A stretch of DNA of 64,000 nt, taken from NCBI RefSeq assembly GCF_036365525.1, contig NC_090404.1, positions 26,992,149 through 27,056,148 on the forward strand. Reading direction: 5' to 3'. Both the position numbers and the translations under genes were made by a program. Under the pieces are notes generated by a model, which saw only the letters and a list, made by a program, of their open reading frames with translations, was not told the origin of the DNA and did not search any database. Below, in pieces: positions 530 to 62,455 of this stretch. This DNA comes from Heterodontus francisci. Taxonomy: Eukaryota. Position 1 is the stretch's first letter; every line of letters starts with the position of its first letter.

Positions 530-532
530 AAA

Positions 533-3089: not shown

Positions 3090-3159
3090 CTGGAACTCCG
3101 ATAACTGCAAGAATGGGATAGTAAATGGCAAATACCGAACCTTTTGCTGCCGCGTGCAC
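3090..3159 (-). pseudogene. Orphan exon 1 of a GPR139-like GPCR; start codon is GTG (VHAAAKGSVFAIYYPILAVIGVP)
   Basis: Colinear with the other three exon 1 copies and keeps the CCAG|GTAAAG donor. ATG is changed to GTG, with an in-frame TGA upstream at 3196-3198. No exon 2 in the window. Confidence 0.7.
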
Positions 3160-3210
3160 TTCTATCTGAAGCTCTAAGAACGTTCTGAACTGCACTCAAA
3201 GATTGTCGCA

Positions 3211-3285
3211 TTTATACCTGATGTCAGGCTCCACGGAGATAATTAGATGGTTTTATATTTTTGCATTATATACACTAATTGAAAC
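3211..3285 (-). promoter_or_regulatory. GPCR proximal promoter (TATAAA, CTAATTA next to TCCGTGGAG, second TAATT)
   Basis: Positionally conserved with the other three copies. Confidence 0.5.
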
Positions 3286-3669
3286 AAACAGATACGTGCA
3301 GCACCTGCCAGACTGGTGTTTTTGTTTTGATGGATTGGAATATTTTTCAAGGGATCTGACACGGCTCTAAAATGAAATACCCAGAGATTACAACATGATC
3401 AGAGTTACAGTTATGGTAATGAAAAGTTTAATAGGCGGTTGGAATGGTGAAAGTTAAACTTGTAAACAAGAAATTCCCAGCTTTAAACCCTTTAACACTG
3501 AGTTAAGTGCCCTCAGCTCAAGGTATAACTGACCAGAGATATTCTGTTCCTGAAGGAAACTACAGCCAAGTTCTCGCTCCTGATCACTATTCAGCTCCAG
3601 TCGGTGTGATCCTGGGTCATATCCACCTGACTTCAAATCCCTCTGAGACGGGGCATCCACTTTGATGCA

Positions 3670-15808: not shown

Positions 15809-15880
15809 TCCCTGGTGGTCTAGTGGTTAGGATTTGGCGCTTTCACCACTGCGGCCCGGGTTCGATTCCCGGTCAGGGAA
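15809..15880 (+). tRNA. tRNA-Glu(TTC) with a weakened anticodon stem (possible pseudo-tRNA)
   Basis: 72 nt TCCCTGGTGGTCTAGTGGTTAGGATTTGGCGCTTTCACCACTGCGGCCCGGGTTCGATTCCCGGTCAGGGAA. Stem TGGCG/CACTG has one C-A mismatch and two G-U pairs. Confidence 0.85.
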
Positions 15881-17465: not shown

Positions 17466-17537
17466 TCCCTGGTGGTCTAGTGGTTAGGATTCGGCGCTTT
17501 CACCACTGCGGCCCGGGTTCGATTCCCGGCCAGGGAG
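17466..17537 (+). tRNA. tRNA-Glu(TTC) with one anticodon-stem mismatch
   Basis: 72 nt TCCCTGGTGGTCTAGTGGTTAGGATTCGGCGCTTTCACCACTGCGGCCCGGGTTCGATTCCCGGCCAGGGAG. Stem CGGCG/CACTG; discriminator base is G. Confidence 0.85.
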
Positions 17538-19147: not shown

Positions 19148-19191
19148 AGCGTTTTCACCACTGCAGCCCGGTTTGATTCCCGGCCAGAGAA
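19148..19191 (+). pseudogene. tRNA-Glu pseudogene with the 5' half deleted
   Basis: Leader CAGCG is joined directly to TTTTCACCACTGCAGCCCGGTTTGATTCCCGGCCAGAGAA. Confidence 0.75.
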
Positions 19192-19363
19192 CAAAGTTTC
19201 CTGTTTGGCATGAAAACGTTTACCACCATTACTTCTTTGGCGAAACATAGCAGAGAATGTTTGGACCCTCGAGCAGTGTCTGTGGACTCAGAAATACAAT
19301 TAAAGCTCCAGGTCGCTCTTGATTTGGCAGAGCTGAACTAGTCAGAGTTGCAAAAGATCGATA

Positions 19364-20240
19364 GTGGCGAATGCGATCCTGTCCCGTGGAAGGTGCTGTC
19401 TCTCCAGATGTATCACTCCGTCCATGGCTTTGATGGATCTCCTGTTCATTATCACTGCCGTGATGTTGGACCGGATTCCTAGTAATCACATTCCAGGTAG
19501 CATCCTGGCCTTTACTTCCATGTGCAGTCTCAGGATTAGGTTCATTTATGCATCCAGAGACTCTACCATCTTGTTAACGGCCAATTTCACCTTTGATCGA
19601 TTTGAAGTAATTTGTTGTCGGAGCCAGAAACAAAATATTGCACTGAAAAAATGGTGGCTGTGATTATTGGAACGACCTGAACGTCCGTTGGGTTATTTAA
19701 TCAATATACCATGGTATTTTATGCACGAAGCGATCTACATAACTGAAAATGTCTGGTAATATTGCAGACTGAAAGATTTGCATTTTACTCTACGAATAGC
19801 GTCAGGTTTTCAATGGACTGACACGATTTCAACCCCTTTCTTTATGATTCTTTTGCTCAATGCTCTGACCTTCAGACTTAATCTAGCTTCCCATAAAACA
19901 CACAACAAACTCCAGCCACAGTAAAGAATGGAATCCAAGTGACGCATTGATGGAAAGCCAGAGGAAATCCATCCATTTACTCTTTGCCATGTCAAGCAGT
20001 GTCATCTTCATGTAGATGATATACGCTTGCAGCAACATTGCTTTGATTCTAATCGTTCTTCTCTTGGGAAGTGGAGTACAAGATTTCCACAGCTTCAGCA
20101 CTTTAAATCAAGCATTTATTGTGGACTTAAATCATGACACGGCAGAAAGCGAAAACGTCACATATGAGCTTGTACGAGTAATTATTCACATGCAGCCCAA
20201 CAACTACTGTTGTGATGAACACGTTTATACACCCAATTCT
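19364..20240 (+). pseudogene. Decayed GPR139-like GPCR exon 2, opposite orientation and divergent subfamily
   Basis: ILSRGRCCLSRCIT...FTFDRFEVICC, then frameshifted remnants of ILLLNALT, RKSI.LLFAMS and MNTFI. Confidence 0.88.
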
Positions 20241-24797: not shown

Positions 24798-25705
24798 TCA
24801 TTTAAACAATTTAACAATTACACATAGTGGATATTTCACTCCATTCTTTAACTCCTCTCTGAATTTTCTCTGGGTCCCTGCATAAATAAATGGATTGACA
24901 CAGGAACTCAAAATCTGAAGCATATATCCGCTTTGGTCCAGAATAAAATTTGATTCACTGAAATTGGAACCAGAAAAATACTTAACTTTTGCGATTCGGA
25001 CATAAAGGAAATTTATAAGAATGAGCAAATATAACAGCATGAAACTGCCCGAGATGCAGAAGAGTAAAACAATGGAGTTTCTCCGCTTCTCCATCTCTGG
25101 GTCACTCTGAGTCTCTCCATTGCTGTGGGCCCGGAGTCTCCTGCGGACTTTACTGGCAACTAGAATATGCCTGACCGTCAGAGCATTGAGCAGTAAAATC
25201 AGAATGAATGGGAGACAAGAGGTTGAAATGGAGCGAATCCAGTCAAATGCAGCCCATGCAGGTGACGTATAAAATATTAATTTTATGGTGCAGAACCAGG
25301 GTATATTGTTACTTATGTACAAAGGTGCATATGTAAAATACCAGAAGGCATTTTTTAAACAGCTCAGTGCAGACACGATTCTGATAACCCACGCTGCCGT
25401 TTTCTCAGTGCAGTATTTTATTTTCAGCTTCTGGCAACAAATAGCTATAAATCGATCAAAGGTAAAAGCGACCGTTAACCAGGCAGAACTGTCCATGATC
25501 GCAAAGCTTAGGGCATTACGGAGACTGCATATGGGTGTGATGAACAGGAAACTGGCTGGGAAATAAATACCAACAATCCGATTTAATATCACAGTAGTCA
25601 AGTTGACCAATAGATCCGTCACAGCCATGGACATCAGGTAGTAATTGATACATCTCGAGAGACCACATCTTCCTCGGGACAGGATCACAATCATTGCTAA
25701 GTTAG
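24798..25705 (-). CDS. GPR139/GPR142-like orphan class A GPCR, copy 1, exon 2 (spliced CDS join 27773..27704 + 25705..24798; 325 aa)
   Basis: Pyrimidine tract plus TACAG acceptor at 25706-25707. Open frame with seven-TM hydrophobic pattern, MAVTD, FTFDRF, ECL2 Cys, LPF..ILLLN and NPFIY. Confidence 0.92.
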
Positions 25706-26319
25706 CTGTAATAGAGACAGAGAGACTAAGAGAAAGAGGGAGGTGCATGTTAGTAAGCGAGCGAGAACAGGAAAATTACTGGTCCAACTCCCAACAAAAT
25801 CATCCATTTTACATATTTTTGTTGTGAAATTTACAGCTTTAACACTGGATCCCGAGTGGAAAACCATTGTTAACCACCCGGCACTTGGCTCTGCATTTAA
25901 AATCTCATTTGGATTCAAAATATAACCGGTCAACAACATTGGAATGTAAAATAATACAATCAAACATTGTGGAGAAGAAAAAGACATCGGAAACCCATTG
26001 AAACCAACATGGAACATCAAACAGGCAAGAAAATTATAACCAGTAACATATTCTAGAAGATATTTAAGAGGGTAAGTAATACAATAAAAGTGGAAACTAA
26101 CAGGAAAAAAAACTTGCATTTAAAACGGATTATATACTGCTCAGGATCTAAAAGGCACTCATCCAAAGAATTATTATAAAATTATTCACTGTTCAAGAAT
26201 TTCTCCTGTCAATTTTTTCGAGATGATTCTCAAACAGAAAGAACTGAGTGGATAATTAATGTTTCCTCACTCTGCGGAGGGGATATAGTTGAAGATGCAG
26301 TGATAACTCCAAGCGCTTC

Positions 26320-26545
26320 TCCTGTTACTCATCTGGGAACTTGGGTGGCAATCTGCACCAGTGGAATAGGTGGATTATGAGGTCTTATTTGAGGAACGGT
26401 CCCTCCTACAATGCAGCACTTCAGCAGTACTGTGCTGCACTGTGCTGTCAGCATGATGATCAGCTTATTTCTATAGTGGGTATTGAAATTGAAACTTTTA
26501 CTTTTACTCAGATGTGAGAGATGCCAACAGTTATGCAGCCTCACA
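26320..26545 (-). mobile_element. Deu-domain SINE remnant shared by the GPCR introns (also about 44095-44310 and 61013-61228)
   Basis: Minus strand CAGTACTGCTGAAGTGCTGCATTGTAGGAGGGACCGT resembles the Deu domain. Same position in all three introns. Confidence 0.5.
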
Positions 26546-27703
26546 AATTGGAGAAAAGATTGAAAGTGGCAACAGTCTATGCCATTACCAGGGGCTTGGA
26601 GCAGAAGAAACATTCGGAGTCAGTAGTGGTCACTGTAGAACAGTCAGCAGTAGCTACTGTGGAAGAGGAGAGCCGGACTGAATCAGTGTTTGTTTGAGAC
26701 TAACAGTAGAAACGCAGAGCTCTGTGTGTTTAAGGGAAGTAAAGATTCATTCGTAAAACGGCCACTTGCTATATTGTTTATATTTCTGTTAATAACTCGA
26801 TTACCAATAATGTCCCATCAATGAATTCACTCATTAAATTGATTCAGGAATTATTTCATTGTTTAATAATTTCAATCAGTAAATCATTTGTGGAAAACAG
26901 GCAGCCGTTGTCAATGTCATTAATACATTAGAACTCGATGTACAGTGGTACCAGTGTGATATTTCACCCACAGTAACGGTGCCAATAACACAATACAGCT
27001 ACATTCACACCGTGATAACAGTGTGGTAATGCACCCACAGTAACTGTTTCAATAGCACTATAGGACTAGGTTTACACCATGATAAAAGTGTGATAATATA
27101 ACAGTGCTGGCAACACAATAGAAATTCATTGATACTGTGACAAGGATGTGATATTTCACCCACAGTAACAGTGGAAATAATCCAATAGAACTACATTTAC
27201 ACCGTGAAATGGCTCACACAAAGGGAAGAAATTATACAGTTAGAAGCACTAAATCATGCCTTTAAGTACGAGATATTATACTAGTTAATAGGAAAATGAT
27301 GCTGCTGAAGAGGAAATATAGTGTCGCCAAAATGGAAAGTGATACTGGAAAGCGGGAGTAATTACGCTGGTAATGTAAAGAAACTATACCATTAATGCTG
27401 ACAAATGACACTTCTAAAGGAGAGAAATTATAGCATTAATGACAAAAAATTATAACAATAAATTCAGAAGACATTATATCATTAAAATGGAGAAATAATA
27501 CCGGTAAAGTAGAAAAGCGATCCTGTAAAATAAGAGAAATTACAACTATTGGAGGGAGGAAATCTTCTGATTAAAGTAGAGAAATTATCCCACTAAAGGG
27601 GAGGAAGGCTATCCACAATGGGAAGAAACATTAGTCATAAATAAGAGCAGTGACAAAGCTAATCAATGAATTCTGTAACTAATAACAAAGTGCAAAACTT
27701 TAC

Positions 27704-27773
27704 CTGGAACTCCGACAATGGCAAGGAAGGGATAGTAAATGGCAAACACCAGACCTTTTGCTGATCCGTGCAT
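27704..27773 (-). CDS. GPR139-like GPCR copy 1, exon 1 (MHGSAKGLVFAIYYPFLAIVGVP, phase-1 intron)
   Basis: ATG at 27773 and donor CCAG|GTAAAG. The 70 nt join in frame to exon 2, giving the TM1 motif GVPAN. Confidence 0.9.
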
Positions 27774-27824: not shown

Positions 27825-27900
27825 TTTATGCTTGATGTAAGGCTCCCAGGAGAGAACTAGATGTTTTTTTTATCTTTTACATTAATTACACTAATTGAAA
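27825..27900 (-). promoter_or_regulatory. GPCR copy 1 proximal promoter (CATAAA, O/E-like TCCCAGGAGA, TAATTA/TAATTG homeodomain sites)
   Basis: Motifs read directly and conserved in position among paralogues. Confidence 0.5.
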
Positions 27901-28889
27901 CCAGCAAATCAGTGAAGCTGCTGCCGGGCTCGTGTTTTTGTTTTGATAGATTGGAATATTTTTCAAGGGTCCTGACACAGCTCTAAAGTGAAATAGCCAG
28001 ACTACAATATGATCCTAGCTAATATAATGTAAGTTTAATAGGTGGTTGCAATGGTGAAATTGAAAGTGGTATGCGAGGAATTCCTAGGTTTAAACCCTTT
28101 AATGTTGAATTAAGTGCCCACAGCGCAAGGCATAACTGATCAGAGTAATCCTGGTCTTGAAGGAAACTGCAGCCAAGTTCTGGCTCTTGATCACTATTCA
28201 GCTCCTGTCTGTGTGATCACTGTCGAGATCCCTCTGTGATGGTGCATCCACTTCAATGCAGTACTGTATTCATTATCGGCAGGGCTAAGTCAGCACGGTG
28301 TTTTCAGTGGGCATAGGTGCAATTGTGATCATTTATGTTATATTTTGCACTTGTTATATTTCATAAGCCTCTTTCTTTAAGCCTCGGCAGCTTTTTAATT
28401 AAAGGCCCATCTACAGCACTAGTTAGTGGATTCTCCTGGATATTGGTCCCAGCACGGTTCAAGTGAACTTCATCCCAACGGAACAGTTCCCCCTTTCTCC
28501 AGTCGTGGAGCCAGTGATACATTGACAGAAATGCCTGCCTCCCACATTGTGTTTTGAACCACGCATTCAGCTCACAGCATGGTCAGTCTTTCCAGCATCA
28601 TTGTGCTACTTGGTGCATTTAACGGGCAACAAAATAGTAGCAAGTAGATAGAGGAGCAGCTTCAAAAGAAAATTAAGAGCGAGGCTGTAGCTATAGAGTA
28701 GCGATAATGGGAAATTTTAATTACTGTGATAGTAAATGAGGCAGCGATTGTGAGGGGCAGAGAGTAAAGAAATTTCTGAAGTGTAGTGTGTTCAAATAAT
28801 TTTCTTTTTCAGTATGTTTCCTGTACAAAGGGAAGGAGGCAATGCTAGATTTAGTCCGGGAATGGCATGGCAAGAATATTAATCATAGT

Positions 28890-38571: not shown

Positions 38572-41500
38572 CAGTTTAAGTACAACAAAGCTAACCTCTT
38601 TCTTTGTTAGACTCAAGAAAACCTGTATGATTGGTTGTTTTTATGATCACTTCGTATATACTGCATATACTCACTGAATTGGCAGCTATATCAACTTCAA
38701 AAACAAATAAACATGTTGTAGAGATGCAGGGAGAGGGAAAAGAGGCGAGCTCTTTAACCAAGTGGATCTGTGGCAATAATCAAAAAAAAAACTTCAACAT
38801 GGGATTTCTTGTGGTTTTCAGTGTCAGAGTACTAAAATGTCCACATTTGAGGCCTAGAACAGAGTGAAATAACTTAGTACAGTTTAAAAGCTTGATCCAT
38901 TAAAGAGTTCAGAAGTATAGCGAGGTAGCTAGCGATAAATACCTGTCCAAATGCTAGGAAACCCGAAATCCTAAAACCTGTAGCCAACCATTATCAAATT
39001 GAAATTGAAGAACTGGCGACAGGCATAGAATCTGAAACGGACAGACTCGTATTAGCCAAGATATAGCTGGAACCTGGAGACTGCTGCCAGAATTCAAAGA
39101 CAAAGAAATGGAATGGGAGAGACAGGAATGGAAGGAAGAAAGACAATATTTCAGGAAAGGAGAAAGAAAGAGCTTTCTAGAAGGAGAGGAAAGAAAGAGA
39201 GTCAAAGCAGCTCGAAATGATTAGGGGAAGATCCAATGTAGCCAGTATCAATAGAGGGAACTATCCTAGCTCAAGACTGAGTGCTGAGGACTCAAAGTTC
39301 TCCCAATTGACACCAATGTTTAATGAGGGGGAATGTGGAATTATGTTTTTGATCTTACTTAAAAAACTTGCAAAACAGTTGAAGTGGCTAGTGGAGGGCT
39401 GGACCCCGCTTGTGTAAAGCGAAATAACAGGGAAAGTCGATGAGGTTTATTTTTTATCCTCCCATGGGAGTCCATAAAACAGTGAGGTAACCAAAATGTC
39501 TATCCTGAGTGAATATGAGCTGGCACCAGAGGCATGCCACCAAAAATTCCTAAACTTCCAAAAACGTCCTGAAGAACCTTAGCTCGAGTTCAAAAAGGTT
39601 AAGCAACTCAATTTCAACCGATAGATAAGAGCAATTAAGATTTGAGGTCACCTACAAAAACCTCAGAGAGGTGATCCTTCTGGAGGAGTTCAAAAACTGT
39701 TTGTCCTTTCCATAAATACCTCCGTGGAGGACCAAAAGCTTTTAAGTGCCAGACAGGCAGCAACCTTGGCTGGTGATTATCAGCTTGCCCACTAGCCCTT
39801 ACCCAAAGGGAAACCTTTCCCTTGTCACGTCCAAAAAACCTGAAAAAGATAGAAGGTGCGAGGATGATAGGAGGATGAACAGCAATGGGTGGTAAGGGAA
39901 AGCTGGAAACACAGGGAGCCTTCCTCAGGCAAAAAATAAAGGTGCTGAGAACAGGAGTTATGCCCGAAATCCTGTATGTTTCCATTGCAACAAGGCAGGT
40001 CACCTTAGAGCTGACTGATGGAAGTTCTGGGGAAAACCCATATGATTTGTCGGGGTAAACCAGAACAGTACAGGAAAAGGGGCCCTGACGGGAAGCGCAG
40101 CCGACCTGCCTATGGCTCCAACCGTGGCAGTAGGTGCCTGTAAATGTACCACTGTGAGTGCAGGCGAATTTATCAAAATCCCTGAGAGATGCCAGGATTT
40201 TGTGTCGAAAGGAAAGGAAGCCCCATACCCCTCGAGTGAGGCAAACAAGCCCATAGTCATACTTATTGATACAGGGACCTCGCAATTCCTTCTGCTGGGA
40301 AAAAAATACAATTTCCCCCAGACAGCACATTCAATGCCAAAGTATTAGTGACCAATTTTGGGGGAAGGTATATGCCCATACCTTTATATCGGGTGCACCT
40401 GCACTACGACCTTATTTCAGGAGCAGTAAATATGGGGGCTTGTCCCTAGTTTACCAGTGGATGGGGTCGACATGTTCTTTGTTAATGACCTGGCGTGGCG
40501 AAGCTGCTGGCATCCCCAGTCTTCTTAGACAGGCTGAAAGAGGTCAAGGAGACAGAGCAGTTACAGGAAAAGGCCCCTGGCATTTTCTCTGAATGTGTTG
40601 TGACCCGGTCTCTGGCTAAACAAGCTCCATCATAGGAGGCTGAATTGGCACTGCAGACGGATGGCCTTGCTGTCTATTTATCCGAAACGTTCTTCCGATG
40701 TTTAGAGGAGCCAAAGGAAGTTTTAAGCAGGATTTCATTTGTCGAGGTTCTGCAAGCTGATCTAATGTTAAGAGAGTTAGCACAGACTGTCCAAACTGAA
40801 GGTGAAGCAGAGAGAGTTCCAGAGTGCTACTTCCTAAAGAATGATGAAGAAGTGGAGACATCCTCACAGACCTGCACATGACGATGGGCAGTGGTCCATC
40901 AGATAGTGGTGCTGTTGAGGTACCATAGGGAAATATTGAGGATAGCCAACACAATTCCAATGGCCGGACATGTCGGTATCCAAAAAAAAAAAAAACGAGT
41001 CCAAATAAGACAGCATTTTAACTGGCCACACCTTCACAGGGATGTGGTAGAGTTCTGTAAAACTTGCCACACGTGCCAGGTTGTGGGGAAGCACCAACCT
41101 GCAATAAAATCTGCGCTTCTAATTCCCAAAGCAGCATATTGGTGAACTATTTAGAAGAGTGTTGGTGATTGTGTGGTGCCCCTGCCGAGTGCAAAAGGGC
41201 ACTACCAGTATCATCTCACCATATTGGGTGTGGCTACCCGATTTCTAGAGGCCATTCTCCTAAGAGCCATCTCTGCCAAGTTAGTGGTGGAGGGGCAAAC
41301 CCAATTCTTCACCCGCTATCGGCTGCCTGCAGAGATCCAGTTGGATCAGGGCACAAATTTTATGGCCAATATTTTTCAAAAGGTAAAGTTCTCAGTTTAG
41401 CACCCACAGTCACAAGAGTCTTTGGAATGGTACCACCAGACCCTAAAGACAGCGATCAGGGCATACTGCCATGAGTACCCCCATGACTGGGACAAAGGGC

Positions 41501-42110
41501 TGGTATTTCTTCTTTTCTAACAGGGACTCACCCAATGCGCCTATTGGTTTTAATCCCTTTGAATTAGTTTATGGACACGAGGTGAGAGATCCTCTTAAAC
41601 TAATCAAGGGAAGGTTTTTAGAGAACAGGGACACTCCCTTCATTTCAGACTTCATCTCCATATTCTGTGGGCAGTATACAAGAGATGGTGCAGTGGCTCA
41701 GGCACAGCTAAAAATATCCCAGACAGCTATGAAAAGGCAGGTTATTAAACATGCCAAAGCCAGAATATTTCAGTATGGACATCATGTGTTAGTGCTACGA
41801 TCAATATAGGGTGAACCATTGAAAGCCTGGTTCAGTGGCCCATACAGAGTAGTAAAGGGGATTAGTGAGTTTAATTATTGAATTGACACTGCAGACTGTA
41901 AGAAAAAAGCAAAGGCTGTTCCACATCAATATGTTGGAGGTCTATCACAACCAGCAAGAGGATAAACAAGCACAAGTCTGTCAGGCAGCCAGGGAAGAGG
42001 AGGACGGTGAGGACGAGTGAGATGGAGGTCTGTAGGGTTCCTAAATTGAGTCCCCTACCGTCCGGTTAGCTAAAATCAAAACGATGATGAGATGAGACAT
42101 CATACTCTCT
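38572..42110 (+). mobile_element. Decayed Gmr1-like Gypsy LTR retrotransposon (LTR end, gag, protease, integrase; no RT seen)
   Basis: Zinc knuckle CFHCNKAGHLRAD near 39975, protease ILIDTGTSQ near 40260, then integrase GHVGI...CKTCHTCQ, DQGTNF and PFELVYG. No RT lies between protease and integrase. Confidence 0.8.
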
Positions 42111-42114
42111 TATT

Positions 42115-42440
42115 TATAGAGATGCAGCACTGAAACATGCCCATCAGCCCACCGAGTCTGTGCCGACCAACACCCACCCATTTATGCTAATCCTACATGA
42201 ATCCCATATTCCTTACCACATCCCCACCATTTTCCTACCACCTACCTACACTAGGGGCAATTTATATTGGCGAATTTATATATCAACCTGCAAGGGTTTG
42301 GCTGTGGGAGGAAACCAGAGCACTCAGCAGAAACCCACACAGATCACAGGGAAAGCTTTCAAACTCCACACAGGCAGCACCCAGAAGCGAACCCACGTCA
42401 CTGAAGCTGTGATGCTAACCACTGCGCCACTGTGCTGCCC
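42115..42440 (-). mobile_element. HE1-type V-SINE
   Basis: tRNA-like head GGGCAGCACAGTGGCGCAGTGGTTAGCA, V-domain TGTGTGGAGTTTG...GGTTTCCTCCCACA and a CR1-type tail. Confidence 0.8.
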
Positions 42441-42552
42441 TTTAAACGCAGAATAGAAAGGAGACCTAACAAGGCTGCTCACAGAGTGTGACAGGCTCAA
42501 GAACAGCACGGAATGCAATATAACGTGAAAACGATGTTGGATTTTACTAATT

Positions 42553-43463
42553 TCATAATTTCAACAATTTATAAATAAGACTGAATAGATATTTCACTCC
42601 ATTCTCTAACTCATCTATGAATTTTCTCTGGGTCCCTGCATAAATAAACGGATTGACGCAGGAACTCAAAAGCTGAAGCATTAATGCGCTTTCCTCCAGA
42701 ATAAAGCTTGATTCATTGAAATTGGAACCGGAAAAATATTTAAGTTTTGCAATTCTAACATAAAGGAAATTTATCAGAAGTACCAAATATAACAGCATGA
42801 AACTGCCCGAGACGCAGAAGAGTAAAACGATGGAGTTTCTCCGCTTCTCCATCTCTGGGTCACTCTGAGTCGTTCCATTGCTGTGGGCCTGGAGTCTCCT
42901 GCGGGCTTTACTGGCCACTAGAATGTGCCTGACAGTCAGTGCATTGAGCAGTAAAATCAGAATGAATGGGAGACAAGAGGTTGAAATGGGGCGAATCCAG
43001 TCAAATGCAGCCCATGCAGGTGACGTATAAAATATTAATTTTACGCTGCAGAACCAGGGTATGTTGTCAATTATATACAAAGGTTCAAATATGAAATACC
43101 AGAAGATATTTTTGAAACAGCTCAATGAAGATATGATTCCTATAACTCGTGCTGCTGTTTTCTCGGTGCAGTATTTTATTTTAATCTTCTGACAACAAAT
43201 TGCCATAAATCGATCAAAGGTAAAAGCGACTGTTAACCAGACAGAACTGTCCATGATCACAAAGCTCAGGACAATACGGAGACTGCATACGGGTGTGATG
43301 GATAGGAAACTGACCGGGAAATAAATACCAGCAATCCGGTTTAATATCACAGTCGTGATCATGACCAGGAAATCCGTCACTGCCATGGACACCATGTAGT
43401 AAGTGATACATCTGGAGAGACCACATCTTCCTCGGGACAGGATCACAATCACTGCCAAGTTAG
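42553..43463 (-). CDS. GPR139/GPR142-like orphan GPCR, copy 2, exon 2 (spliced CDS join 45451..45382 + 43463..42553; 326 aa)
   Basis: TACAG acceptor at 43464-43465. Intact seven-TM frame with DRF and NPFIY. Confidence 0.92.
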
Positions 43464-45381
43464 CTGTAATAGAGACAGAGAGAGTCTGAGAGAAAGAGGG
43501 AGGATTGCGTTTGTGAGTGAGCGAGAACAGGGCAGTTTCTGTCTGACTCCCAACAAAATCATCCATTTAACAGTTTTTTTGGTGAATTTTATGGCTTTGA
43601 CACATGATCCTACGTGGAAAACTATCGCTTAATTTCTGGACACTTTTTCCTGTGTTTAAAATGACATCAGGATTTAAACTAAGACTGGTCAGTAACATTG
43701 AAATGTAAAATAATACAATCAAACATAATGGAGAACAAAAAGGCATCAGAAACCCATCGACACAAAAATGGGAGCATCAAACAGACAAGAAAAATAACAT
43801 CAGGAACATATTGTGGAAGATATTTAAGAGGGTAAATAATACAATAACTAACATTACAGTGCAATCTAACAGGAACACAGGAAAAACTTGCATTTACAAC
43901 AGATTATATACAGCTCAGGACCTAAAAGGCGCTCATCCAATGAATTACTATAAAATGATTCACAGTTGGTGATTTCTGTTTTCTTAAATCAATTTGTTCG
44001 TAAAGACTCTTAAACGGAAAGAACGGAATGGACAGTTAGTGTTTCCTCACTATGCAGAGGAGATATAGTTTAAAATGCAGTGATAACTCCAAGCGCTTCT
44101 CCCGTTGTTCAGCTGAGAACTTGGGTGTCAATCTGTACCAGCGGAAGTGGTGAATTATGAGGTCCTAATTGAACAAGGGTCCCTCTGACAGTGCAGCACT
44201 TCCTCAGCACTGCGCTACGCTGTGCTGTCAGCATAGATGTCCAGCCTTGTCCCATAGTGGCTATTGAAATTAAAACTTTTTTACTCAGGTGCGAGAGATG
44301 CCGCCAGTTATGCAGCTTCACAAATATGGAGAGTAGATTGAAGGTGGCAACAGTCTGTTACATTGTTGGAGGCTTGGAGCAGAAGGATCATTAGGGACTC
44401 AGCAGCCAGCTCTGTAGGACATTTAGCATTAGCGAATGTGGAACAGGAAAGCCGGGCTGAAGCAGTGTGAATTTGAGACTGAGAGTAGAAACACTGCGCT
44501 CTGTGAGTTCAGGATAAGTACAGATTCATTCACAAAACAGTCGCTTGTTGCATTGCTTGTATTTCTGTTAATAACTCAATTCCTAATAATGTTCCATCAA
44601 TGAATTCACTCATTAAATACAACCAGGAAATATTTAATTGTTGAATAATTTCAATCAGTGCAAATCAGACAGTCGTTGTCAATGTCAATGTAGAACTCGT
44701 TGTACACTGTGGTAACAGGCTGATAGTTCACTCACAGTAACAGTATCAATAAGACAATAGAGCTACATTTACACCATGATAACAGTGTAATAATTCACCC
44801 ACAGTAACAATGACAGCAACACAAAAGAAATACATTGATACCATGATAACGGTGTGCTAAATCACCCAGAGTAACAGTGGAAATAACGCAATAGAACTGC
44901 AATTACACTATGAAATGGCACACGTAAAGGGGAGAACTTATACAGTTAGAAGCAATATTACACCATTTAATGGGAAAATTATATCACTGAAGTGGAGAAA
45001 TTGTGCTGCCGAAGTGGATGTGATACTTGAAAGCGGGAGTAATTACACTCGTAATGTTAAGAGATCATACCAGTAATGCTGAGAAATGACACTTCTAAAG
45101 GGGAGAGGTTATAACATCAATGACAAAAAAAATCAGTAAATTTCGAAGAAATTATATCATTAAAATGGAGAAACAATTCTGTTAAAGTCGAAAAATTATC
45201 CGGTAAAATAGGAGAAATTGCAACAATTGGAGGGAAGAAATCTTACCACTAAAAGAGAGAAATTATTTCATTGAAGGGGAGAAAGACTATCCATAATCTG
45301 GAGAAACGCTCGTTGTAAGTAAGAGCAGTGACAAAACTAATCAATAATTTTCAAAACTAATAACTAACCGCAATACTTTAC

Positions 45382-45451
45382 CTGGAATCCCAATAGCTGC
45401 AAGGACAGGATAGTAAATGGCAAACACCAGACCTTTTATTGATCCGTGCAT
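45382..45451 (-). CDS. GPR139-like GPCR copy 2, exon 1 (MHGSIKGLVFAIYYPVLAAIGIP)
   Basis: ATG at 45451, donor CCAG|GTAAAG, phase 1 matching exon 2. Confidence 0.9.
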
Positions 45452-45501
45452 TTCTATTAGAAGTTCTGAGCAGGTCTAAACTGCACTCAAAGATTGTCAT
45501 A

Positions 45502-45537
45502 TTTATACCTGCTGTAAGGCTCCAGGGAGATAATTAG
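45502..45537 (-). promoter_or_regulatory. GPCR copy 2 promoter: CTAATTA-TC-TCCCTGGAG followed by TATAAA
   Basis: Minus strand reads CTAATTATCTCCCTGGAGCCTTACAGCAGGTATAAA. Confidence 0.55.
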
Positions 45538-47118
45538 ATGGTTCTATCTTTTACATTGATTACACTCAATGAAACAAGCAGATTAGTGCAGCAGTTGCCG
45601 GGCTCGTGTTCTTGTTTTGATGGAATGGAATATTTTTCAAGGGACCTGACATGGCTCTAAGGTGAAATACTCAAACTACAGTATAATCCTAGATACAAAT
45701 AGCATAATGAAAAGTTTAATAGGCAGCTGCAATGGTGAAAGTGAACCTTGCATATGAGGAATCCACGGGTTTAAATAATTTAATACTGAGTTAAGTGCCC
45801 TCAGCACAAGGCATAACTGATCAGAGATATACTGGTCCGAAAGGAAACTGTGGCCAAGTTCTCGCTCTTGATCACTATTCAGCTCCAGTCTGTGCGATCC
45901 CAGCTCCAAATCTCTCTGAGACAGTGCATCCATTTCAACACAACTGTCTGCATTCAGTATGGGCAGGTCTAGGTCAGCACAGTGCTTTCAGTGTGCACAG
46001 GTAAAAATGTGCACGTTTATGTCTTGTGTGTAACTGTCCAGTTCAGCACGCTTGAGTTCAGCATTGGTCAAGTTTAGTACAGTTATATTCAGTGGATAAA
46101 TGTTCAGTTGAGCACACAGCATATCGTATGGACTGCTTGGTGTCGGTGCACTTATATGCAGTGTCATCAGTTCAAGTTCAGCATGGTCTTGATCTGTGTG
46201 CACAGGTTTGGTTCAGTACGATTACATGCAGGGTACACAGGTTTCGTTCACAGGGGGAGGGGGGTGGTTGCGGTGGTGGTTGGTGAGGAAGAGAATAAAG
46301 GGAAGGTGTGTGATAGGGCAGAGGGATGGAAAGATTAAATAACAAAGCTCCAGTTCTGCATTGTTACTTTCAGTGAGGTATCTACAGTTCCATCCAGTTG
46401 CATTGAACGTGGACAGGTCACGGTTACTGCCAGCAAGATCTTGCTCAGCTCAAGGTGTTTACATCCAGTGTGCAGATGGCTAGATGATTATGGTTACTGC
46501 CAGTCTGTACTGCACGGTTACTTGCAGTGTGGAGGAGTCCAGTTCATCAGGGTTGCAATTATCCTAGAAACGTCCCAGTTTTGCATGGCTACATTGAGTG
46601 TGGACAGGTCCAGATCTGCATGCTTGCATTTAGTGTGCAGAGATCCAGTTAAGTGAGGTTGCATTCATTACGTACAGGCTTTGGGGAGTCAGGAGGTGAT
46701 CTACTCATGACAGAAATCCCAGCCTCCGACTTGCTGTTGCAGCCATTATATTTATATGGCTGGTACAGTTTTTATGGTCGTTGAATGTCAACCTTTGGGA
46801 CAGGATCCTTTTATTTCTTGATGTCCTTCTCCAGCAAGGCAGGCATTTGTTGTCCCCCTAATTGCCTTTGATTGGTGCCATATCCAACAGCATAGCTGTC
46901 ACTAGAAGGCCTACAAACCGTTCTTACATGTCTTAGCTTCTCTTTTTTTCAGTATCTCTACCCATACAGATTCACTTTTCCACGCTTCAAAGCCAATATA
47001 CTTCCTCAACTACTGTACTTTGATCATTTAGTGTCAGGGTCACTGAACCTCGTTTTTTATTTCGCATGTCCTTGCAAGATGTATCCTGGAATATTTATTC
47101 CCCAACTTTGGTCACCAT

Positions 47119-49705: not shown

Positions 49706-51398
49706 CCATGCAACCACATCTCAATTAGATCAAACGGTTCAACTTTATTTGTGCCATTAACTTGCCTAACTTTTCACAAATCCTCCAGGAATTCAGTAAA
49801 AATCTGTTTTAATTTTACCTTTCTGTCATTTCCCCCTGATTTTACCTTATTTACTGATACACAGTTGCTGTTAAACTTTTTGTCCCTTCCTGGCACATTC
49901 TTCTGAACTTTACCCAAATCGTTGCACTGCTCTGTGCCCTTGACCTTTTACTTTTCCTTTATAAGTCCCCCATCATTTTAAGTCCCGTCATCTTTTAAAT
50001 TAAAGTCCCAGTGCAGCATTGGTTATTGGAATCGCCTGGACATTGGTCCAGCTAGTTTTAAGTGGACTTCTTCCCAACAGAACAGGTCCCTCTTTCCCCA
50101 GTGCTGGAGCCAGTAATCCATGGATAGTAATGCCTGTCTCCCACACCACTGTTTGGGCGCCATTTCAACCCATAGTATTGAATAGTCATTCTGGCAACAT
50201 TCATAAATTCTGTTCCTTCCACCAAATACCTGGGGCACGGTAAAGTTACATTGATCAGTTGTTCCTCTATTATTTGGACATACCATCCAGTTCACTAAAC
50301 AATGGGGTCTGAGTAAAATAATTTCAGCGGCTGTTCTTCCAGTAGCTTAGAATTCTGTTCATTCGCCAAACACCTGAGACAGGGTAAAGTTGCAATGATC
50401 TGTCAATCCCCTATTACCTGTACATTTTATCCCATTGACTAAATATCTTGGGCGAGTTAAAGATACTTTGATCAGCGAATCTTCTATTATCCATATATTC
50501 GATCACATTATCCGAACACCTGGGACAAAATAAAGCTACAATGATCAGTCAGTCCCCTATTACCTGTAGTTTTTTTTTTCCCTTTGATCGAACAACATGG
50601 GCCGGTTAAAGATACTTGATCATGTAATCCTCTATTACCCATACATTTTATCCTGTTGACCAAACACGCATTGGGCTGGTTAAATGCACTTCGATTGGGT
50701 GATCCTCTGTACATGTACATTTCATCCCATTGACAAGACACCAGTTAAAATACTTTGATCAGATAATCCTCCATTACTTGAACATTCTATTCCATTAAAC
50801 AACCATCTGGGACAGGGTAAAGATACATTGAACAGTTATTGCTCTATTACTCGAACATTCACATCAGCGTTTGGCGTGTAGGTGTATGAAAACATGAAGT
50901 GTGGTTACAAAGATTGGTGAGCTGTGTATGTGACCTGGCTCAAAATAGGGGATGATTGTGTGCGTAATATTCATGGATGCAAGGCATTCAGGAAAGAACA
51001 GGAAGGGAAAAAAGGAGGGTAGCGGTTTTGATGAAGATTTTTGTTGCACTGCTGCAAAGAATGTCCTTGGGGATCAAAGACAAAATCTATTTAGTGGGAA
51101 TTGAGAAAGATGAAGGAGATATTACGTTATTTGATGCATTTAATGAGCCACAGAATAGTGGTAAGTAGGTAGAGAAGTAGATTTGAAACCAAATTAACGT
51201 GAGAGGCAAGAGCTATAGAGTAGTGATAACGTGAGTTATCATTTAATATTGAATAAGGCAGTGACTGCAAAGAGGAGAGATGAAAGGAATGTCTGAACTG
51301 TGTTGAAATACTTTTCTTGATCAGTTTGTTTCCTGCCCAAGAGAACGGAGGGAATGCTGGATTTAGTCTGGCAATGTCACAGTCTAGAAGAATAGTGA

Positions 51399-52440
51399 TT
51401 ATCTTCTTCTTCTTTGGCCTCCTTATATCGAGAGACAATGGGTAAGCGCCTAGAGGTGGACAGTGGTGTGTGGAGCAACGCCTGGAGTGGCTATAAAGGC
51501 CAATTCTAGAGTGACAGGCTCTTCCACAGGTGCTGCAGAAAAATTTGTTTGTCGGGGCTGTTACACAGTTGGCTCTCCCCTTGCGCTTTTGTCTTTTTTC
51601 CTGCCAACTGCTAAGTCTCTTCGACTCGCCACACTTTAGCCCCGCCTTTATGGCTGCCCGCCAGCTCTGGCAAATGCTGGCAACTGACTCCCATGACTTG
51701 TGATCAATGTCACAGGACTTCATGTCGCGTTTGCAGACGTCTTTAAAGCGGAGACATGGATGGCCGGTGGGTCTGATACCAGTGGCGAGCTTGCTGTACA
51801 ATGTGTCTTTGGGGATCCTGCCATCTTCCATGTGGCTCACATGGCCAAGCCATCTCAAGCGCCGCTGGCTCAGTATTGTGTATAAGCTTGGGATGTTGGC
51901 CGCCTCGAGGACTTCTGTGTTGGAGATACGGTCCTGCCACCTGATGCCAAATATTCTCCGGAGGCAGCGAACATGCAATGAATTGAGAAGTCGCTCTTGG
52001 CTGACATACTTTGTCCAGGCCTCGCTGCCATAGAGCAAAGTATTGAGGACACAGGCTTGATACACTTGGACTTTTGTGTTCCGTGTCAGTGCCCCATTTT
52101 CCCACACTCTCTTGGCCAGTCTGGACATAGCAGTGGAAGCCTTTTCCATGTGCTTGTTGATTTCTGCATCTAGAGACAGGTTACTGGTGATAGTTGAGCC
52201 TAGGTAGGTGAACTCTTGAACCACTTCCAGAGCGTGGTCGCCAATATTGATGGATGGTGCATTTCTGACATCCTGGCCCATGATGTTCGTTTTCTTGAGG
52301 CTGATGGTTAGGCCAAATTCATTGCAGGCAGCCGCAAACCTGTCGATGAGACTCTGCAGGCACTCTTCAGTGTGAGATGTTAAAGCAGCATCGTCAGCAA
52401 AGAGGAGTTCCCTGATGAGGAGTTTCCATACTTTGGACTT
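51399..52440 (-). mobile_element. 5'-truncated RTE-clade LINE
   Basis: ELLFADD near 52400, FTYLGS, VLNTLLYGSEAW and RLRWLGHV..M...RIPK, then C-terminal CSTC...HS. (AAG)n tail. TSD ATAGTGA at 51392 and 52441. Confidence 0.92.
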
Positions 52441-52445
52441 ATAGT

Positions 52446-53126
52446 GACCGGAATTTATGCCACCTCACCTCCAACGGGCAGGCTGGTGGTGAGGGGGAGG
52501 GGGGGCTGCAAAATTGAGTGGGAGGTGAAGGGGGCCATTCCTGCCGTCTTCCTGCCACTGTTAACATTTTACATGCGGCGGTAGCGTCAAAGGTCACCTA
52601 AGGTCAATCAAAGCCCTTAAGAGGCCGACTGGACAGCAAAGGCCCCAAGAGCCCCACTATGTAAAATCTGGCTGCCTGTTTGCGAGCTGGGGTGCCCTCC
52701 TGATTGGGCACCCTGTGCCCCATGGAGGGTTGCACCCGAAGCCCCAAACGCCCCCACCTCGCAACACTCCTTCCATCCCCCCACCCCCTACCAACTGACA
52801 CCCCTGCCTCGCTGGGGCCTGGCCGATTGTCTTACCTTCAGTCAGGGGCTATCCTTCTTCTTGCCGCTGTTGGCTGGGTGTAGTCCCAGCAATAGCCAGC
52901 TGTCACAGTGGAGCTGCTGAGACGAAGAGCTGCCAGCCCGCTGATTGGTCAACAGCTCCATCAGGTGAGGCCTGCTACCTCAAGGAGGTGGAGGTCCCGC
53001 CCAAGGCCGATTCGGGGCTTGGGAGCCAAAAATCCCGGCGTGGTTCCCCAGACTCGGGCGGAGATCGCCCCTGCCCGACTTTTCGGCCAGTGGGCGGGGC
53101 CTTCTGCCCAACTTAAATTCCGACCA
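52446..53126. mobile_element. MITE-like GC-rich non-autonomous element
   Basis: Termini GACCGGAATTT...AAATTCCGACC form an imperfect inverted repeat; no coding signal. Confidence 0.6.
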
Positions 53127-57845: not shown

Positions 57846-59030
57846 ATGAGGATAGCCAACACAATTCCAATGGCCGGACATGTCGGTATCCAAAAAAAAA
57901 ACTAGTCCATATAAGACAGCATTTTAACTGGCCACACCTTCACAGGGATGTGGTAGAGTTCTGTAAAACTTGCCACACGTGCCAGGTTGTGGGGAAGCAC
58001 CAACCTGCAATAAAATCTGCGCTTCTAATTCCCATAGCAGCATATTGGTGAACTATTTAGAAGAGTGTTGGTGATTGTGTGAGGCCCCTGCCGAGTGCAA
58101 AAGGGCACTACCAGTATCATCTCACCATATTGGGTGTGGCTACCCGATTTCTAGAGGCCATTCTCCTAAGAACCATCTCTGCCAAGTTAGTGGTGGAGGG
58201 GCGAACCCAATTCTTCACCCGCTATTGGCTGCCTGCAGAGATCCGGTTGGATCAGGGCACAAATTTTATGGCCAATATTTTTCAAAAGGTCATGATCCAG
58301 CTAAAGTCCTCAGCTTACCACCCACAGTCACAAGAGTCTTTGGAATGGTACCACCAGACCCTAAAGACAGCGATCAGGGCATACTGCCATGAGTACCCCC
58401 ATGACTGGGACAAAGGGCTGGTATTTCTTCTTTTCTAACAGGGACTCACCCAATGCGCCTATTGGTTTTAATCCCTTTGAATTAGTTTATGGACACGAGG
58501 TGAGAGATCCTCTTAAACTAATCAAGGGAAGGTTTTTAGAGAACAGGGACACTCCCTTCATGTCAGACTTCATCTCCATATTCTGTGGGCAGTATACAAG
58601 AGATGGTGCAGTGGCTCAGGCACAGCTAAAAATATCCCAGACAGCTATGAAAAGGCAGGTTATTAAACATGCCAAATCCAGAACATTTCAGCATGGACAT
58701 CATGTGTTAGTGCTACTATCAATATAGGGTGAACCATTGAAAACCTGGTTCAGTGGTCCATACAGAGTAGTAAAGGGGATTAGTGAGTTTAATTATTGAA
58801 TTGACACTGCAGACTGTAAGAAAAAAGCAAAGGCTGCTCCACATCAATATGTTGGAGCTCTATCACAACCAGCAAGAGGATAAACAAGCACAAGTCTGTC
58901 AGGCAGCCAGGGAAGAGGAGGACGGTGAGGACGAGTGAGATGGAGGTCTGTAGGGTTCCTAAATTGAGTCCCCTACCGTCCGGTTAGCTAAAATTAAAAC
59001 GATAATGAGATGAGACATCATACTCTCTTA
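57846..59030 (+). mobile_element. Gypsy integrase remnant
   Basis: ORF 58079..58438 reads DQGTNF...SSAYHPQSQESLE..HQTLK. Confidence 0.85.
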
Positions 59031-59032
59031 TT

Positions 59033-59358
59033 TATAGAGATGCAGCACTGAAACATGCCCATCAGCCCACCGAGTCTGTGCCGACCAACACCCACCCATT
59101 TATGCTAATCCTACATGAATCCCATATTCCTTACCACATCTCCACCATTTTCCTACCACCTACCTACACTAGGGGCAATTTATATTGGCGAATTTATATA
59201 TCAACCTGCAAGGGTTTGGCTGTGGGAGGAAACCAGAGCACTCAGCAGAAACCCACACAGATCACAGGGAAAGCTTTCAAACTCCACACAGGCAGCACCC
59301 AGAAGCGAACCCACGTCGCTGAAGCTGTGATGCTAACCACTGCGCCACTGTGCTGCCC
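59033..59358 (-). mobile_element. HE1-type V-SINE (duplicate of 42115-42440)
   Basis: Near-identical to 42115-42440. Confidence 0.8.
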
Positions 59359-59470
59359 TTTAAACGCAGAATAGAAAGGAGACCTAACAAGGCTGCTCAC
59401 AGAGCGTGACAGGCTCAAGAACAGCACGGAATGCAATATGACGTGAAAACGATGTTGGATTTTACTAATT

Positions 59471-60381
59471 TCATAATTTCAACAATTTATAAATAAGACT
59501 CAATAGATATTTCACTCCATTCTCTAACTCATTTCTGAATTTTCTCTGGGTCCCTGCATAAATAAACGGATTGACGCAGGAACTCAAAAGCTGAAGCATT
59601 AATGCGCTTTCCTCCAGAATAAAGCTTGATTCATTGAAATTGGAACCGGAAAAATACTTAAGTTTTGCAATTCGAACATAAAGGAAATTTATCAGAAGTA
59701 CCAAATATAACAGCATGAAACTGCCCGAGACGCAGAAGAGTAAAACGATGGAGTTTCTCCGCTTCTCCATCTCTGGGTCACTCTGAGTCGCTCCATTGCT
59801 GTGGGCCTGGAGTCTCCTGCGGGCTTTACTGGCCACTAGAATGTGCCTGACAGTCAGTGCATTGAGCAGTAAAATCAGAATGAATGGGAGACAAGAGGTT
59901 GAAATGGGGCGAATCCAGTCAAATGCAGCCCATGCAGGTGACGTATAAAATATTAATTTTACGCTGCAGAACCAGGGTATGTTGTCAATTATATACAAAG
60001 GTTCAAATATGAAATACCAGAAGATATTTTTGAAACAGCTCAATGAAGATATGATTCCTATAACTCGTGCTGCTGTTTTCTCGGTGCAGTATTTTATTTT
60101 AATCTTCTGACAACAAATTGCCATAAATCGATCAAAGGTAAAAGCGACTGTTAACCAGACAGAACTGTCCATAATCGCAATGCTCAGGACAATACGGAGA
60201 CTGCATACGGGTGTGATGGATAGGAAACTGACCGGGAAATAAATACCAGCAATCCGGTTTAATATCACAGTCGTGATCATGACCAGGAAATCCGTCACTG
60301 CCATGGACACCATGTAGTAAGTGATACATCTGGAGAGACCACATCTTCCTCGGGACAGGATCACAATCACTGCCAAGTTAG
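59471..60381 (-). CDS. GPR139/GPR142-like orphan GPCR, copy 3, exon 2 (spliced CDS join 62369..62300 + 60381..59471; 326 aa)
   Basis: TACAG acceptor at 60382-60383. Intact seven-TM frame with 6 amino-acid differences from copy 2. Confidence 0.92.
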
Positions 60382-62299
60382 CTGTAATAGAGACAGAGAG
60401 AGTCTGAGAGAAAGAGGGAGGATTGCGTTTGTGAGTGAGCGAGAACAGGGCAGTTTCTGTCTGACTCCCAACAAAATCATCCATTTAACAGTTTTTTTGG
60501 TGAATTTTATGGCTTTGACACATGATCCTACGTGGAAAACTATCGCTTAATTTCTGGACACTTTTTCCTGTGTTTAAAATGACATCAGGATTTAAACTAA
60601 GACTGGTCAGTAACATTGAAATGTAAAATAATACAATCAAACATAATGGAGAACAAAAAGGCATCAGAAACCCATCGACACAAAAATGGGAGCATCAAAC
60701 AGACAAGAAAAATAACATCAGGAACATATTGTGGAAGATATTTAAGAGGGTAAATAATACAATAACTAACATTACAGTGCAATCTAACAGGAACACAGGA
60801 AAAACTTGCATTTACAACAGATTATATACAGCTCAGGACCTAAAAGGCGCTCATCCAATGAATTACTATAAAATGATTCACAGTTGGTGATTTCTTTTTT
60901 CTTAAATCAATTTGTTCGTAAAGATTCTTAAACGGAAAGAACGGAATGGACAGTTAGTGTTTCCTCACTATGCAGAGGAGATATAGTTTAAAATGCAATG
61001 ATAACTCCAAGCACTTCTCCCGTTGTTCAGCTGAGAACTTGGGTGTCAATCTGTACCAGCGGAAGTGGTGGATTATGAGGTCCTAATTGAACAAGGGTCC
61101 CTCTGACAGTGCAGCACTTCCTCAGCACTGCGCTACGCTGTGCTGTCAGCATAGATGTCCAGCCTTGTCCCATAGTGGCTATTGAAATTAAAACTTTTTT
61201 ACTCAGGTGTGAGAGATGCCACCAGTTATGCAGCTTCACAAATATGGAGAGTAGATTGAAGGTGGCAACAGTCTGTTACATTGTTGGAGGCTTGGAGCAG
61301 AAGGATCATTAGGGACTCAGCAGCCAGCTCTGTAGGACATTTAGCATTAGCGAATGTGGAACAGGAAAGCCGGGCTGAAGCAGTGTGAATTTGAGACTGA
61401 GAGTAGAAACACTGCGCTCTGTGAGTTCAGGATAAGTACAGATTCATTCACAAAACAGTCGCTTGTTGCATTGCTTGTATTTCTGTTAATAACTCAATTC
61501 CTAATAATGTTCCATCAATGAATTCACTCATTAAATACAACCAGGAAATATTTAATTGTTGAATAATTTCAATCAGTGCAAATCAGACAGTCGTTGTCAA
61601 TGTCAATGTAGAACTCGTTGTACACTGTGGTAACAGGCTGATAGTTCACTCACAGTAACAGTATCAATAAGACAATAGAGCTACATTTACACCATGATAA
61701 CAGTGTAATAATTCACCCACAGTAACAATGACAGCAACACAAAAGAAATACATTGATACCATGATAACGGTGTGCTAAATCACCCAGAGTAACAGTGGAA
61801 ATAACGCAATAGAACTGCAATTACACTATGAAATGGCACACGTAAAGGGGAGAACTTATACAGTTAGAAGCAATATTACACCATTTAATGGGAAAATTAT
61901 ATCACTGAAGTGGAGAAATTGTGCTGCCGAAGTGGATGTGATACTTGAAAGCGGGAGTAATTACACTCGTAATGTTAAGAGATCATACCAGTAATGCTGA
62001 GAAATGACACTTCTAAAGGGGAGAGGTTATAACATCAATGACAAAAAAAATCAGTAAATTTCGAAGAAATTATATCATTAAAATGGAGAAACAATTCTGT
62101 TAAAGTAGAAAAATTATCTGGTAAAATAGGAGAAATTGCAACAATTGGAGGGAAGAAATCTTACCACTAAAAGAGAGAAATTATTTCATTGAAGGGGAGA
62201 AAGACTATCCATAATCTGGAGAAACGCTCGTTGTAAGTAAGAGCAGTGACAAAACTAATCAATAATTTTCAAAACTAATAACTAACCGCAATACTTTAC

Positions 62300-62369
62300 C
62301 TGGAATCCCAATAGCTGCAAGGACAGGATAGTAAATGGCAAACACCAGACCTTTTATTGATCCGTGCAT
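62300..62369 (-). CDS. GPR139-like GPCR copy 3, exon 1 (MHGSIKGLVFAIYYPVLAAIGIP)
   Basis: ATG at 62369 and donor CCAG|GTAAAG; identical to copy 2 exon 1. Confidence 0.9.
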
Positions 62370-62419
62370 TTCTATTAGAAGTTCTGAGCAGGTCTAAACT
62401 GCACTCAAAGATTGTCATA

Positions 62420-62455
62420 TTTATACCTGCTGTAAGGCTCCAGGGAGATAATTAG
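62420..62455 (-). promoter_or_regulatory. GPCR copy 3 promoter: CTAATTA-TC-TCCCTGGAG followed by TATAAA
   Basis: Identical to the copy 2 promoter. Confidence 0.55.

Follow-up and report, generated by a model that had tools for sequence, protein, structure and literature searches.

In mouse, the promoters of olfactory receptor (OR) genes are enriched in three elements, O/E sites, homeodomain sites and TATA (PMC3247239, which gives the NOLF, or O/E, consensus as TCCCyngrga), and O/E-like sites are also found near V1R start sites (PMC3247230). For a composite of Lhx2 and Ebf sites, PMC5608512 and PMC12547500 describe an enrichment that holds for enhancers but not for OR promoters. Lhx2 and Ebf together bind thousands of sites outside OR clusters (n = 3805), and relative to these other co-bound sites OR enhancers show a specific enrichment of the composite spacing (PMC5608512); the composite recurs in the class I OR enhancer (J element, PMC7804114) and in TAAR enhancers (PMC8213717). 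This cis-grammar is itself known from mouse; what appears to be new here is an OR-type form of it on a shark receptor family, and the expansion of that family.

Sharks possess about 10-50 known olfactory receptors despite large olfactory organs, a mismatch that specialists explain by a sensitivity trade-off, and labelling for the presumed V2R co-receptor marks about 6 neurons in each mm of lamella (PMC10116579). Nearly all shark olfactory sensory neurons are microvillous, and the V2Rs are considered the main receptor family (PMC10116579, PMC11979771). Paucity of GPCRs has been noted in cartilaginous fishes (PMC8455134). GPR139 is presented in abstracts as a conserved habenula/brain receptor for Trp/Phe, and extra GPR139-like subtypes have been named in bony fishes, with no text on sharks in the accessible part of PMC6504862. 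No description of the family reported here, or of its expansion, was found in the literature outside subscription journals; 'GPR' is absent from the main text of a catshark study (PMC11979771), and GPR139/142 are not mentioned in the 12 of 24 supplement files of a whale-shark paper that were searched.

Receptor genes of the window and their family

The window, a 64-kb stretch of Heterodontus francisci (horn shark) DNA, contains four homologous upstream regions and three intact two-exon genes, with promoter motifs and receptor copies 0-3 all on the minus strand (Table 1). The donor GTAAAG and the acceptor TTACAG are present in each of copies 1, 2 and 3, and 7tm_1 was the sole Pfam match for both exon-2 products tested. 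Comparison of copies 1 and 2 shows that they are under purifying selection (dN 0.093, dS 0.236), and no positive selection was seen between them. Copies 2 and 3 are a 99.0% identical duplication of 6158 nt (40937-47082 vs. 57847-64000), differing by 6 non-synonymous and 3 synonymous changes, which is either a very recent duplication or an uncollapsed haplotype. Because of this identity, which reaches 100% in the aligned upstream stretch, copies 2 and 3 count as one observation, so that the independent promoters are three, one of them with the complete motif set. No exon 2 of copy 0 was found within the window.

Table 1. Features of the receptor locus, in window coordinates
Feature	Position	Strand	Remarks
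Copy 0 exon 1	3159-3090 (region 3090..3354)	-	begins GTG (3159), not ATG
Copy 0 composite, CTAATTA-TC-TCCGTGGAG	3246-3229	-	altered O/E core TCCGTGGAG at 3237-3229
Copy 0 TATAAA	3216-3211	-	
Copy 0 second homeodomain core	3281-3276	-	
Copy 0 distal O/E-like site	3354-3345	-	
Decayed exon-2 fragment	19358..19921	+	more distant family member, 42% aa identity, stops
Copy 1 gene	24798..27773	-	exon 1 27773-27704, exon 2 25705-24798; 325 aa, intact
Copy 1 promoter region	27825..27970	-	CATAAA 27830-27825 in place of TATAAA
Copy 1 O/E-like site, TCTCCTGGGA	27853-27844	-	TCCCAGGAGA on + strand
Copy 1 two other homeodomain cores	27897-27892, 27888-27883	-	
Copy 1 distal site, ACCCTTGAAA	27970-27961	-	
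Copy 2 exon 2	42553..43463	-	spliced product 326 aa, Pfam 7tm_1
Copy 2 intron	45381-43464	-	1918 nt, acceptor TTACAG
Copy 2 exon 1, coding	45382..45451	-	70 nt, ATG to phase-1 donor GTAAAG
Copy 2 predicted transcription start	45477	-	A of YR step, 30 nt after TATA first base
Copy 2 TATAAA	45502..45507	-	first base 56 nt before ATG
Copy 2 composite, CTAATTA-TC-TCCCTGGAG	45520..45537	-	homeodomain core abutting O/E-like site
Copy 2 second O/E-like site, TCCCTTGAAA	45635..45644	-	9/10 to NOLF consensus TCCCyngrga
Invariant 17-nt block, ~430 nt upstream	45869..45885	-	all copies, unexplained
Copy 3 gene	59471..62369	-	exon 1 62369-62300, exon 2 60381-59471; 326 aa
Copy 3 composite, same as copy 2	62438..62455	-	TATAAA 62425-62420; ATG 62369
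Copy 3 second O/E-like site	62562-62553	-	
LINE-type/integrase frames	29600-33640 (+), 10547-13490 (-), 51130-52464 (-), 58061-58435 (+)		

Several other features accompany the genes. At the intron position of copy 0 (1-1140, minus strand), DNA resembling by eye the 5' end of an LTR retroelement contains a 140-codon frame (421-2) that runs off the window and has no Pfam match; this LTR-like element may have displaced copy 0 exon 2. A tandem array of 1657-nt units (2.7 copies; 14778-19360) carries tRNA-Glu(TTC) genes at 15809 and 17466, with a tRNA-Lys(TTT) gene ahead of them at 14778. Directly after the array comes the decayed, inverted exon-2 fragment, the 1.9 kb upstream of which show homology neither to exon 1 nor to the promoter. 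The spaces between the receptor genes are filled by frames for LINE-type endonuclease and reverse transcriptase and by an integrase-core fragment, and each copy has, in the 5' part of the receptor intron, an imperfect repeat about 67 nt long (2000-2570, 26880-27210, 44700-44915).

With the exon-2 protein as query we identified 2,025 relatives at E up to 0.001. Among the best 120 clusters, 85 are labelled Heterodontus francisci (horn-shark relatives being counted as 90% clusters), 33 are from other sharks, and 2 are unlabelled products of the window. Most relatives bear the RefSeq name 'probable G-protein coupled receptor 139', and 77 of the 120 best RefSeq/UniRef relatives begin at the Met-His of the window genes. 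More distant representatives, of which 20 out of 150 were looked up, come from sharks, stingray and skate, and then from salamanders, coelacanth, teleosts and amphioxus; in the atlas the family has FMRFamide-receptor-like and Srw-type GPCRs as neighbours. A tree was built from 32 proteins (29 picked from the matches plus the three window copies, human GPR139/142 being left out, and with long branches flagged); in it the elasmobranch sequences group with the salamander pair P0233/P0284 (newt, axolotl) at 100/100 support, apart from coelacanth, teleost and amphioxus sequences.

The best solved-structure match is human GPR139, a weak one (E = 1e-11, 48 bits), and neither an OR nor a TAAR is among the 38 solved-structure matches; the window genes, which are two-exon rhodopsin-class GPCRs, are therefore not ORs. 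ORs carry the sequence motifs PMY, MAYDRY and KAFSTC, all three of which are absent from the three window proteins. We infer that the family is an elasmobranch expansion related, as paralogues, to GPR139/142, and, by analogy with Trp/Phe at GPR139, its ligands may be amino acids or peptides. The family is large and arranged in tandem, undergoes birth and death, encodes a very short N-terminus and has members in sharks, ray and skate. Chemoreceptors usually form large tandem families, and the shape of this one thus appears chemoreceptor-like.

The upstream element and its chance expectation

The first-pass annotation had described an olfactory-receptor-like arrangement, a homeodomain site and an O/E site beside TATA, ahead of every receptor exon 1. 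All motif strings and distances that it quoted are present, on the minus strand: copies 2 and 3 are identical here, the copy 2 composite being followed by a gap of 12 nt, TATAAA, a gap of 50 nt, and the ATG at 45451, and the TCTCCTGGGA site of copy 1 was found together with its nearby homeodomain cores. The further motif TTCAAGGG, said to be kept throughout, was found in 4 of 4 copies (plus strand, 3346, 27962, 45636 and 62554); read on the gene strand it is TCCCTTGAAA, that is, a second O/E-like site about 110 nt farther upstream than the composite.

The generalization to every exon 1 holds in part. Only copies 2 and 3 carry the full homeodomain, O/E and TATA set; in copy 1 the homeodomain half is broken (CTAGTTC beside the O/E site) and CATAAA replaces the TATAAA of the other three copies, and copy 0 has TCCGTGGAG in place of the O/E core. 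The paired arrangement beside TATA is therefore intact in 2 of 4 copies, or in 3 of 4 if a palindromic register, CTCC-NN-GGAG, is accepted, which copy 0 matches when the gap is one base shorter. The annotation had correctly recorded the changed core of the ATG-less copy, which begins with GTG; the decay that this seemed to imply is doubtful. A loss of the O/E site consequent on the loss of the ATG is unsupported, as the change sits in the spacer of the palindrome and need not be a loss. Individual sites would appear to turn over between copies, copy 1 having lost the adjacent homeodomain core while possessing two others and a better O/E match.

Copy 2 has two O/E sites that match the NOLF consensus at 9 of 10 positions, TCCCTGGAGC at -77 and TCCCTTGAAA at -193, and copies 1 and 0 have one 9/10 site each, that of copy 1 (TCCCAGGAGA) on the opposite strand. 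O/E-like sites (TCCC core, at most one mismatch) occur within about 200 nt of the predicted transcription start in 3 of 3 independent copies, and in 79 of 1,236 background tiles, each 250 nt long. One or more such sites together with a homeodomain core within 250 nt were found in 3 of 3 promoters vs. 19 of the 1,236 tiles, and two such sites with a core in 2 of the 1,236 tiles. A homeodomain core lies near an O/E site in all three copies, a lone TAATT[AG] core arising in 45% of shuffled 300-nt promoters.

We further compared the composite to the Sfaktiria EMSA probe, TAATTG-ATC-TCC-AA-GGA (PMC5608512, supplement 7). The shark site, TAATTA-TCT-CCC-TG-GAG, has the same register and agrees with the probe at 8 of 17 bases and at 15 of 17 purine/pyrimidine positions. 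Judging from mutagenesis primers (PMC7804114), the J-element composite appears to share this register, and it fits the looser pattern only. The fixed spacing of copies 2 and 3 agrees with both exemplars, that of copies 0 and 1 does not; the comparison used hand-written patterns and these two exemplars. On both strands of the 64 kb, the register was found in copies 2 and 3 only, against chance expectations of 0.7 (strict), 2.2 (loose) and 3.8 (purine/pyrimidine) occurrences in the window. In 20,000 shuffles of the promoter, it appeared in 0.3% (strict), 1.2% (loose) and 2.1% (purine/pyrimidine). Since the shark site was already known when the search patterns were drawn up, 1-2% is the fair chance figure, and it applies to one event.

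Conservation and the transcription start

The expectation, also put forward earlier, that the motif would be more conserved than neighbouring bases was not borne out: an alignment of the three independent copies has 13 invariant columns out of 17 in the motif vs. 211 out of 300 upstream, and 39% of 17-nt upstream windows are as invariant as the motif, in a comparison of three close copies that has little power. Identity of copies 1 and 2 is 77% at -100..0 and 87% at -210..-100, with neutral proxies of 80% at four-fold sites (85/106) and 81.5% in the intron. Two 17-nt upstream windows are fully invariant, at -192 and at -434; that at -192 overlaps the second O/E-like site, in which copy 1 departs from the others at the first base. 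The block about 430 nt upstream, with counterparts at ~3590, at 28200 and at the equivalent position of copy 3, is more conserved than the composite motif.

Predicted proteins of relatives gave some additional information. Of six models with an in-frame extension before Met-His, two reach the motif. In the horn-shark paralogue P0060 (73% identity), the predicted N-terminal extension HLIISLES..RYK spans the motif region at a distance of 90 nt, equal to that of copies 0 and 1; this agrees with a kept composite but is not proof of one, as 864 of 46,656 codon combinations fit. The extension of the zebra-shark paralogue P0135 keeps the TATA-encoded YK without the LIISLE stretch and may be a splicing artefact of the gene model. 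Searches for other predicted proteins reading through the promoter returned the query alone or no match; a degenerate exon-1/donor pattern had 0 matches in metagenome contigs, and a protein scan gave one unrelated 43-residue match in metagenomes and none in viral contigs.

These data bear on whether the resemblance is accidental. The TATA promoter could be real and the homeodomain/O/E match a chance one, ancestral and copied by recent duplication, with expression elsewhere (gut or endocrine tissue like GPR142, brain like GPR139, skin, or immune cells) and with control by other elements, the invariant blocks at -190 and -430 for example. That the motif is no more conserved than its neighbours or neutral sites, that it is broken in the intact copy 1, that lone homeodomain cores are so common in shuffles, that a single independent event at 1-2% is modest for a post hoc search, and that GPR139 is described as a habenula/brain receptor all fit such an accident, whereas the position of the paired motif 12 nt from TATA, in the exact published register and nowhere else in the window, and the retention of O/E and homeodomain sites in every independent copy do not; an endogenous ligand, moreover, would hardly explain a family of such size. 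We consider a chance match unlikely, though by no means negligible.

The predicted transcription start of copy 2 lies 26-27 nt (about 27) before the start codon, and the same spacing of a YR step to TATA is found in copies 0 and 1, at 3186 and 27800 (3 of 3 copies). This start leaves every upstream ATG outside the 5' UTR, two such ATGs being out of frame. A sigma-70 scan was discarded as inapplicable to a vertebrate promoter. The same bases could alternatively be read as a 3' splice site, with CTAAT as branch point, TCTCCCT as pyrimidine tract and CAG|G as acceptor; the intron would then come after a non-coding exon farther upstream that has escaped notice, an arrangement found in many OR genes, and the promoter would lie elsewhere. 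In copies 0 and 2, CTAAT stands at -87/-86 with YAG|G at -61/-60, some automatic gene models splice into the motif region, and one low-depth contig of a relative, possibly DNA, covers 45686-45874. Spliced in this way, transcripts of copies 0 and 2 would have out-of-frame ATGs (-52, -49) before the true start; copy 1 lacks both branch point and acceptor at this place, pyrimidines make up 11-13 of 20 positions vs. 15-16 at the true acceptors, no shared donor is found within 1.6 kb, and TATA is followed by a YR step 30 nt on in all three copies. We therefore hold the splice-site account to be very improbable.

Possible olfactory use and comparison with known systems

The explanation that we favour is that each gene of the tandem array would have a compact TATA promoter, with transcription probably starting about 27 nt before the ATG; that a homeodomain core abutting an O/E (EBF) site just upstream, in the rigid spacing at which Lhx2 and Ebf jointly bind mouse OR enhancers, could be bound by factors of these types; and that the second O/E-like site, about 110 nt farther up, would go with them. 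The receptors may thus use the olfactory-neuron programme, as had been suggested. The resemblance to OR-type promoters, closer than the first-pass annotation had supposed, lies in the composite spacing, the second O/E-like site and the distance from TATA to the YR step, and does not extend to every copy. We put at about even the chance that this is a working promoter of Lhx2/Ebf type that serves olfactory neurons, the family being unrecognised chemoreceptors. The shape of the family sets the prior, which is raised by the 1-2% motif match beside TATA and lowered by the lack of excess conservation. The intact composite is, moreover, effectively one observation, the intact gene of copy 1 has neither the composite nor a canonical TATA, and the zebra-shark extension without LIISLE, the mouse composite's enrichment in enhancers instead of promoters, and the microvillous neurons and V2R dominance of sharks (PMC10116579, PMC11979771) count against an olfactory promoter.

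EBF is used in B cells and in many neurons, and the sites could be functional in another cell type, such as B cells or leukocytes, other sensory neurons, or skin chemosensory cells, in which case the family would be an array of immune or somatosensory type comparable to FPRs or MRGPRs. Such a role accords with the 3805 co-bound sites outside OR clusters (PMC5608512) and with the expression of catshark OR-like and some V2R genes mainly outside the nose (PMC11979771), but the specific enrichment of the composite spacing in OR enhancers over other co-bound sites and its recurrence in class I OR and TAAR enhancers speak for olfactory neurons, and we judge another cell type to be distinctly improbable. 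Contigs of three sequencing runs (RNA only by guess; 80% likeness) contained no piece over exon 1 or the motif and no joint at the real intron; over exon 2 they gave low-depth pieces of diverged paralogues, uninformative on tissue.

Missing receptors of sharks thus have a concrete candidate in a large array of orphan GPCRs with olfactory-type cis-signals. Organ RNA-seq already exists for the catshark and allows an immediate test, since family members have been annotated in this species (XP_038630629.1, XP_038630632.1 and XP_038654761.1). The shark lineage is separated from mouse by more than 400 million years. If the olfactory reading is true, another independent GPCR branch was recruited to smell, and the Lhx2/Ebf composite operates at promoters in a lineage far from mouse; if it is refuted, an undescribed expansion still needs a function. 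A broader proposal, to which we attach somewhat less than an even chance, is that sharks and rays smell largely with an uncounted class A GPCR family from the GPR139/142 lineage, of scores to hundreds of genes per genome, each with a promoter-proximal Lhx2/Ebf composite. Mammals would then confine to OR enhancers a composite that is promoter-proximal in sharks, the view of a tiny, V2R-only repertoire in cartilaginous fishes would be overturned, and the composite grammar would date to the jawed-vertebrate ancestor.

Among receptors, the shark family is closest to GPR139/GPR142 and the GPR139-like subtypes GPR210A/B (PMC6504862), as indicated by the best structure match and the RefSeq name. It differs from GPR139 in that its match to this receptor is weak, far below its scores against hundreds of shark paralogues, and from the coelacanth and teleost GPR139-like sequences in that the shark, ray and skate clade is separate and joined with a salamander gene. 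As clustered, expanding non-OR GPCR genes, its members resemble TAARs, rodent VNO FPRs and shark V2Rs, and TAAR enhancers carry the same composite (PMC8213717); TAARs, FPRs and V2Rs have shown neuronal expression and ligands, whereas the shark family is another class A branch that, like its composite, is known from sequence.

Compared to mouse OR and V1R proximal promoters, the shark region is similarly AT-rich (38% G+C), with O/E-like sites, homeodomain cores and TATA, the O/E-like sites lying within 200 nt of the predicted start. The shark gene, which is neither an OR nor a V1R, differs in having an intron within its coding region and seems to lack a 5' non-coding exon, and the excess site conservation shown for mouse ORs is not seen in the three shark copies. 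The composite follows the Greek Island design of Monahan 2017 (PMC5608512), that is, a homeodomain core, three bases, YCY, two bases and purines. Greek Islands are intergenic enhancers in OR clusters, whereas the shark site lies 12 nt from the TATA of a non-OR gene and is intact in one of three independent copies. On present evidence, the shark element would work like an OR/TAAR-type regulatory element, while being neither part of an OR gene nor a Greek Island.
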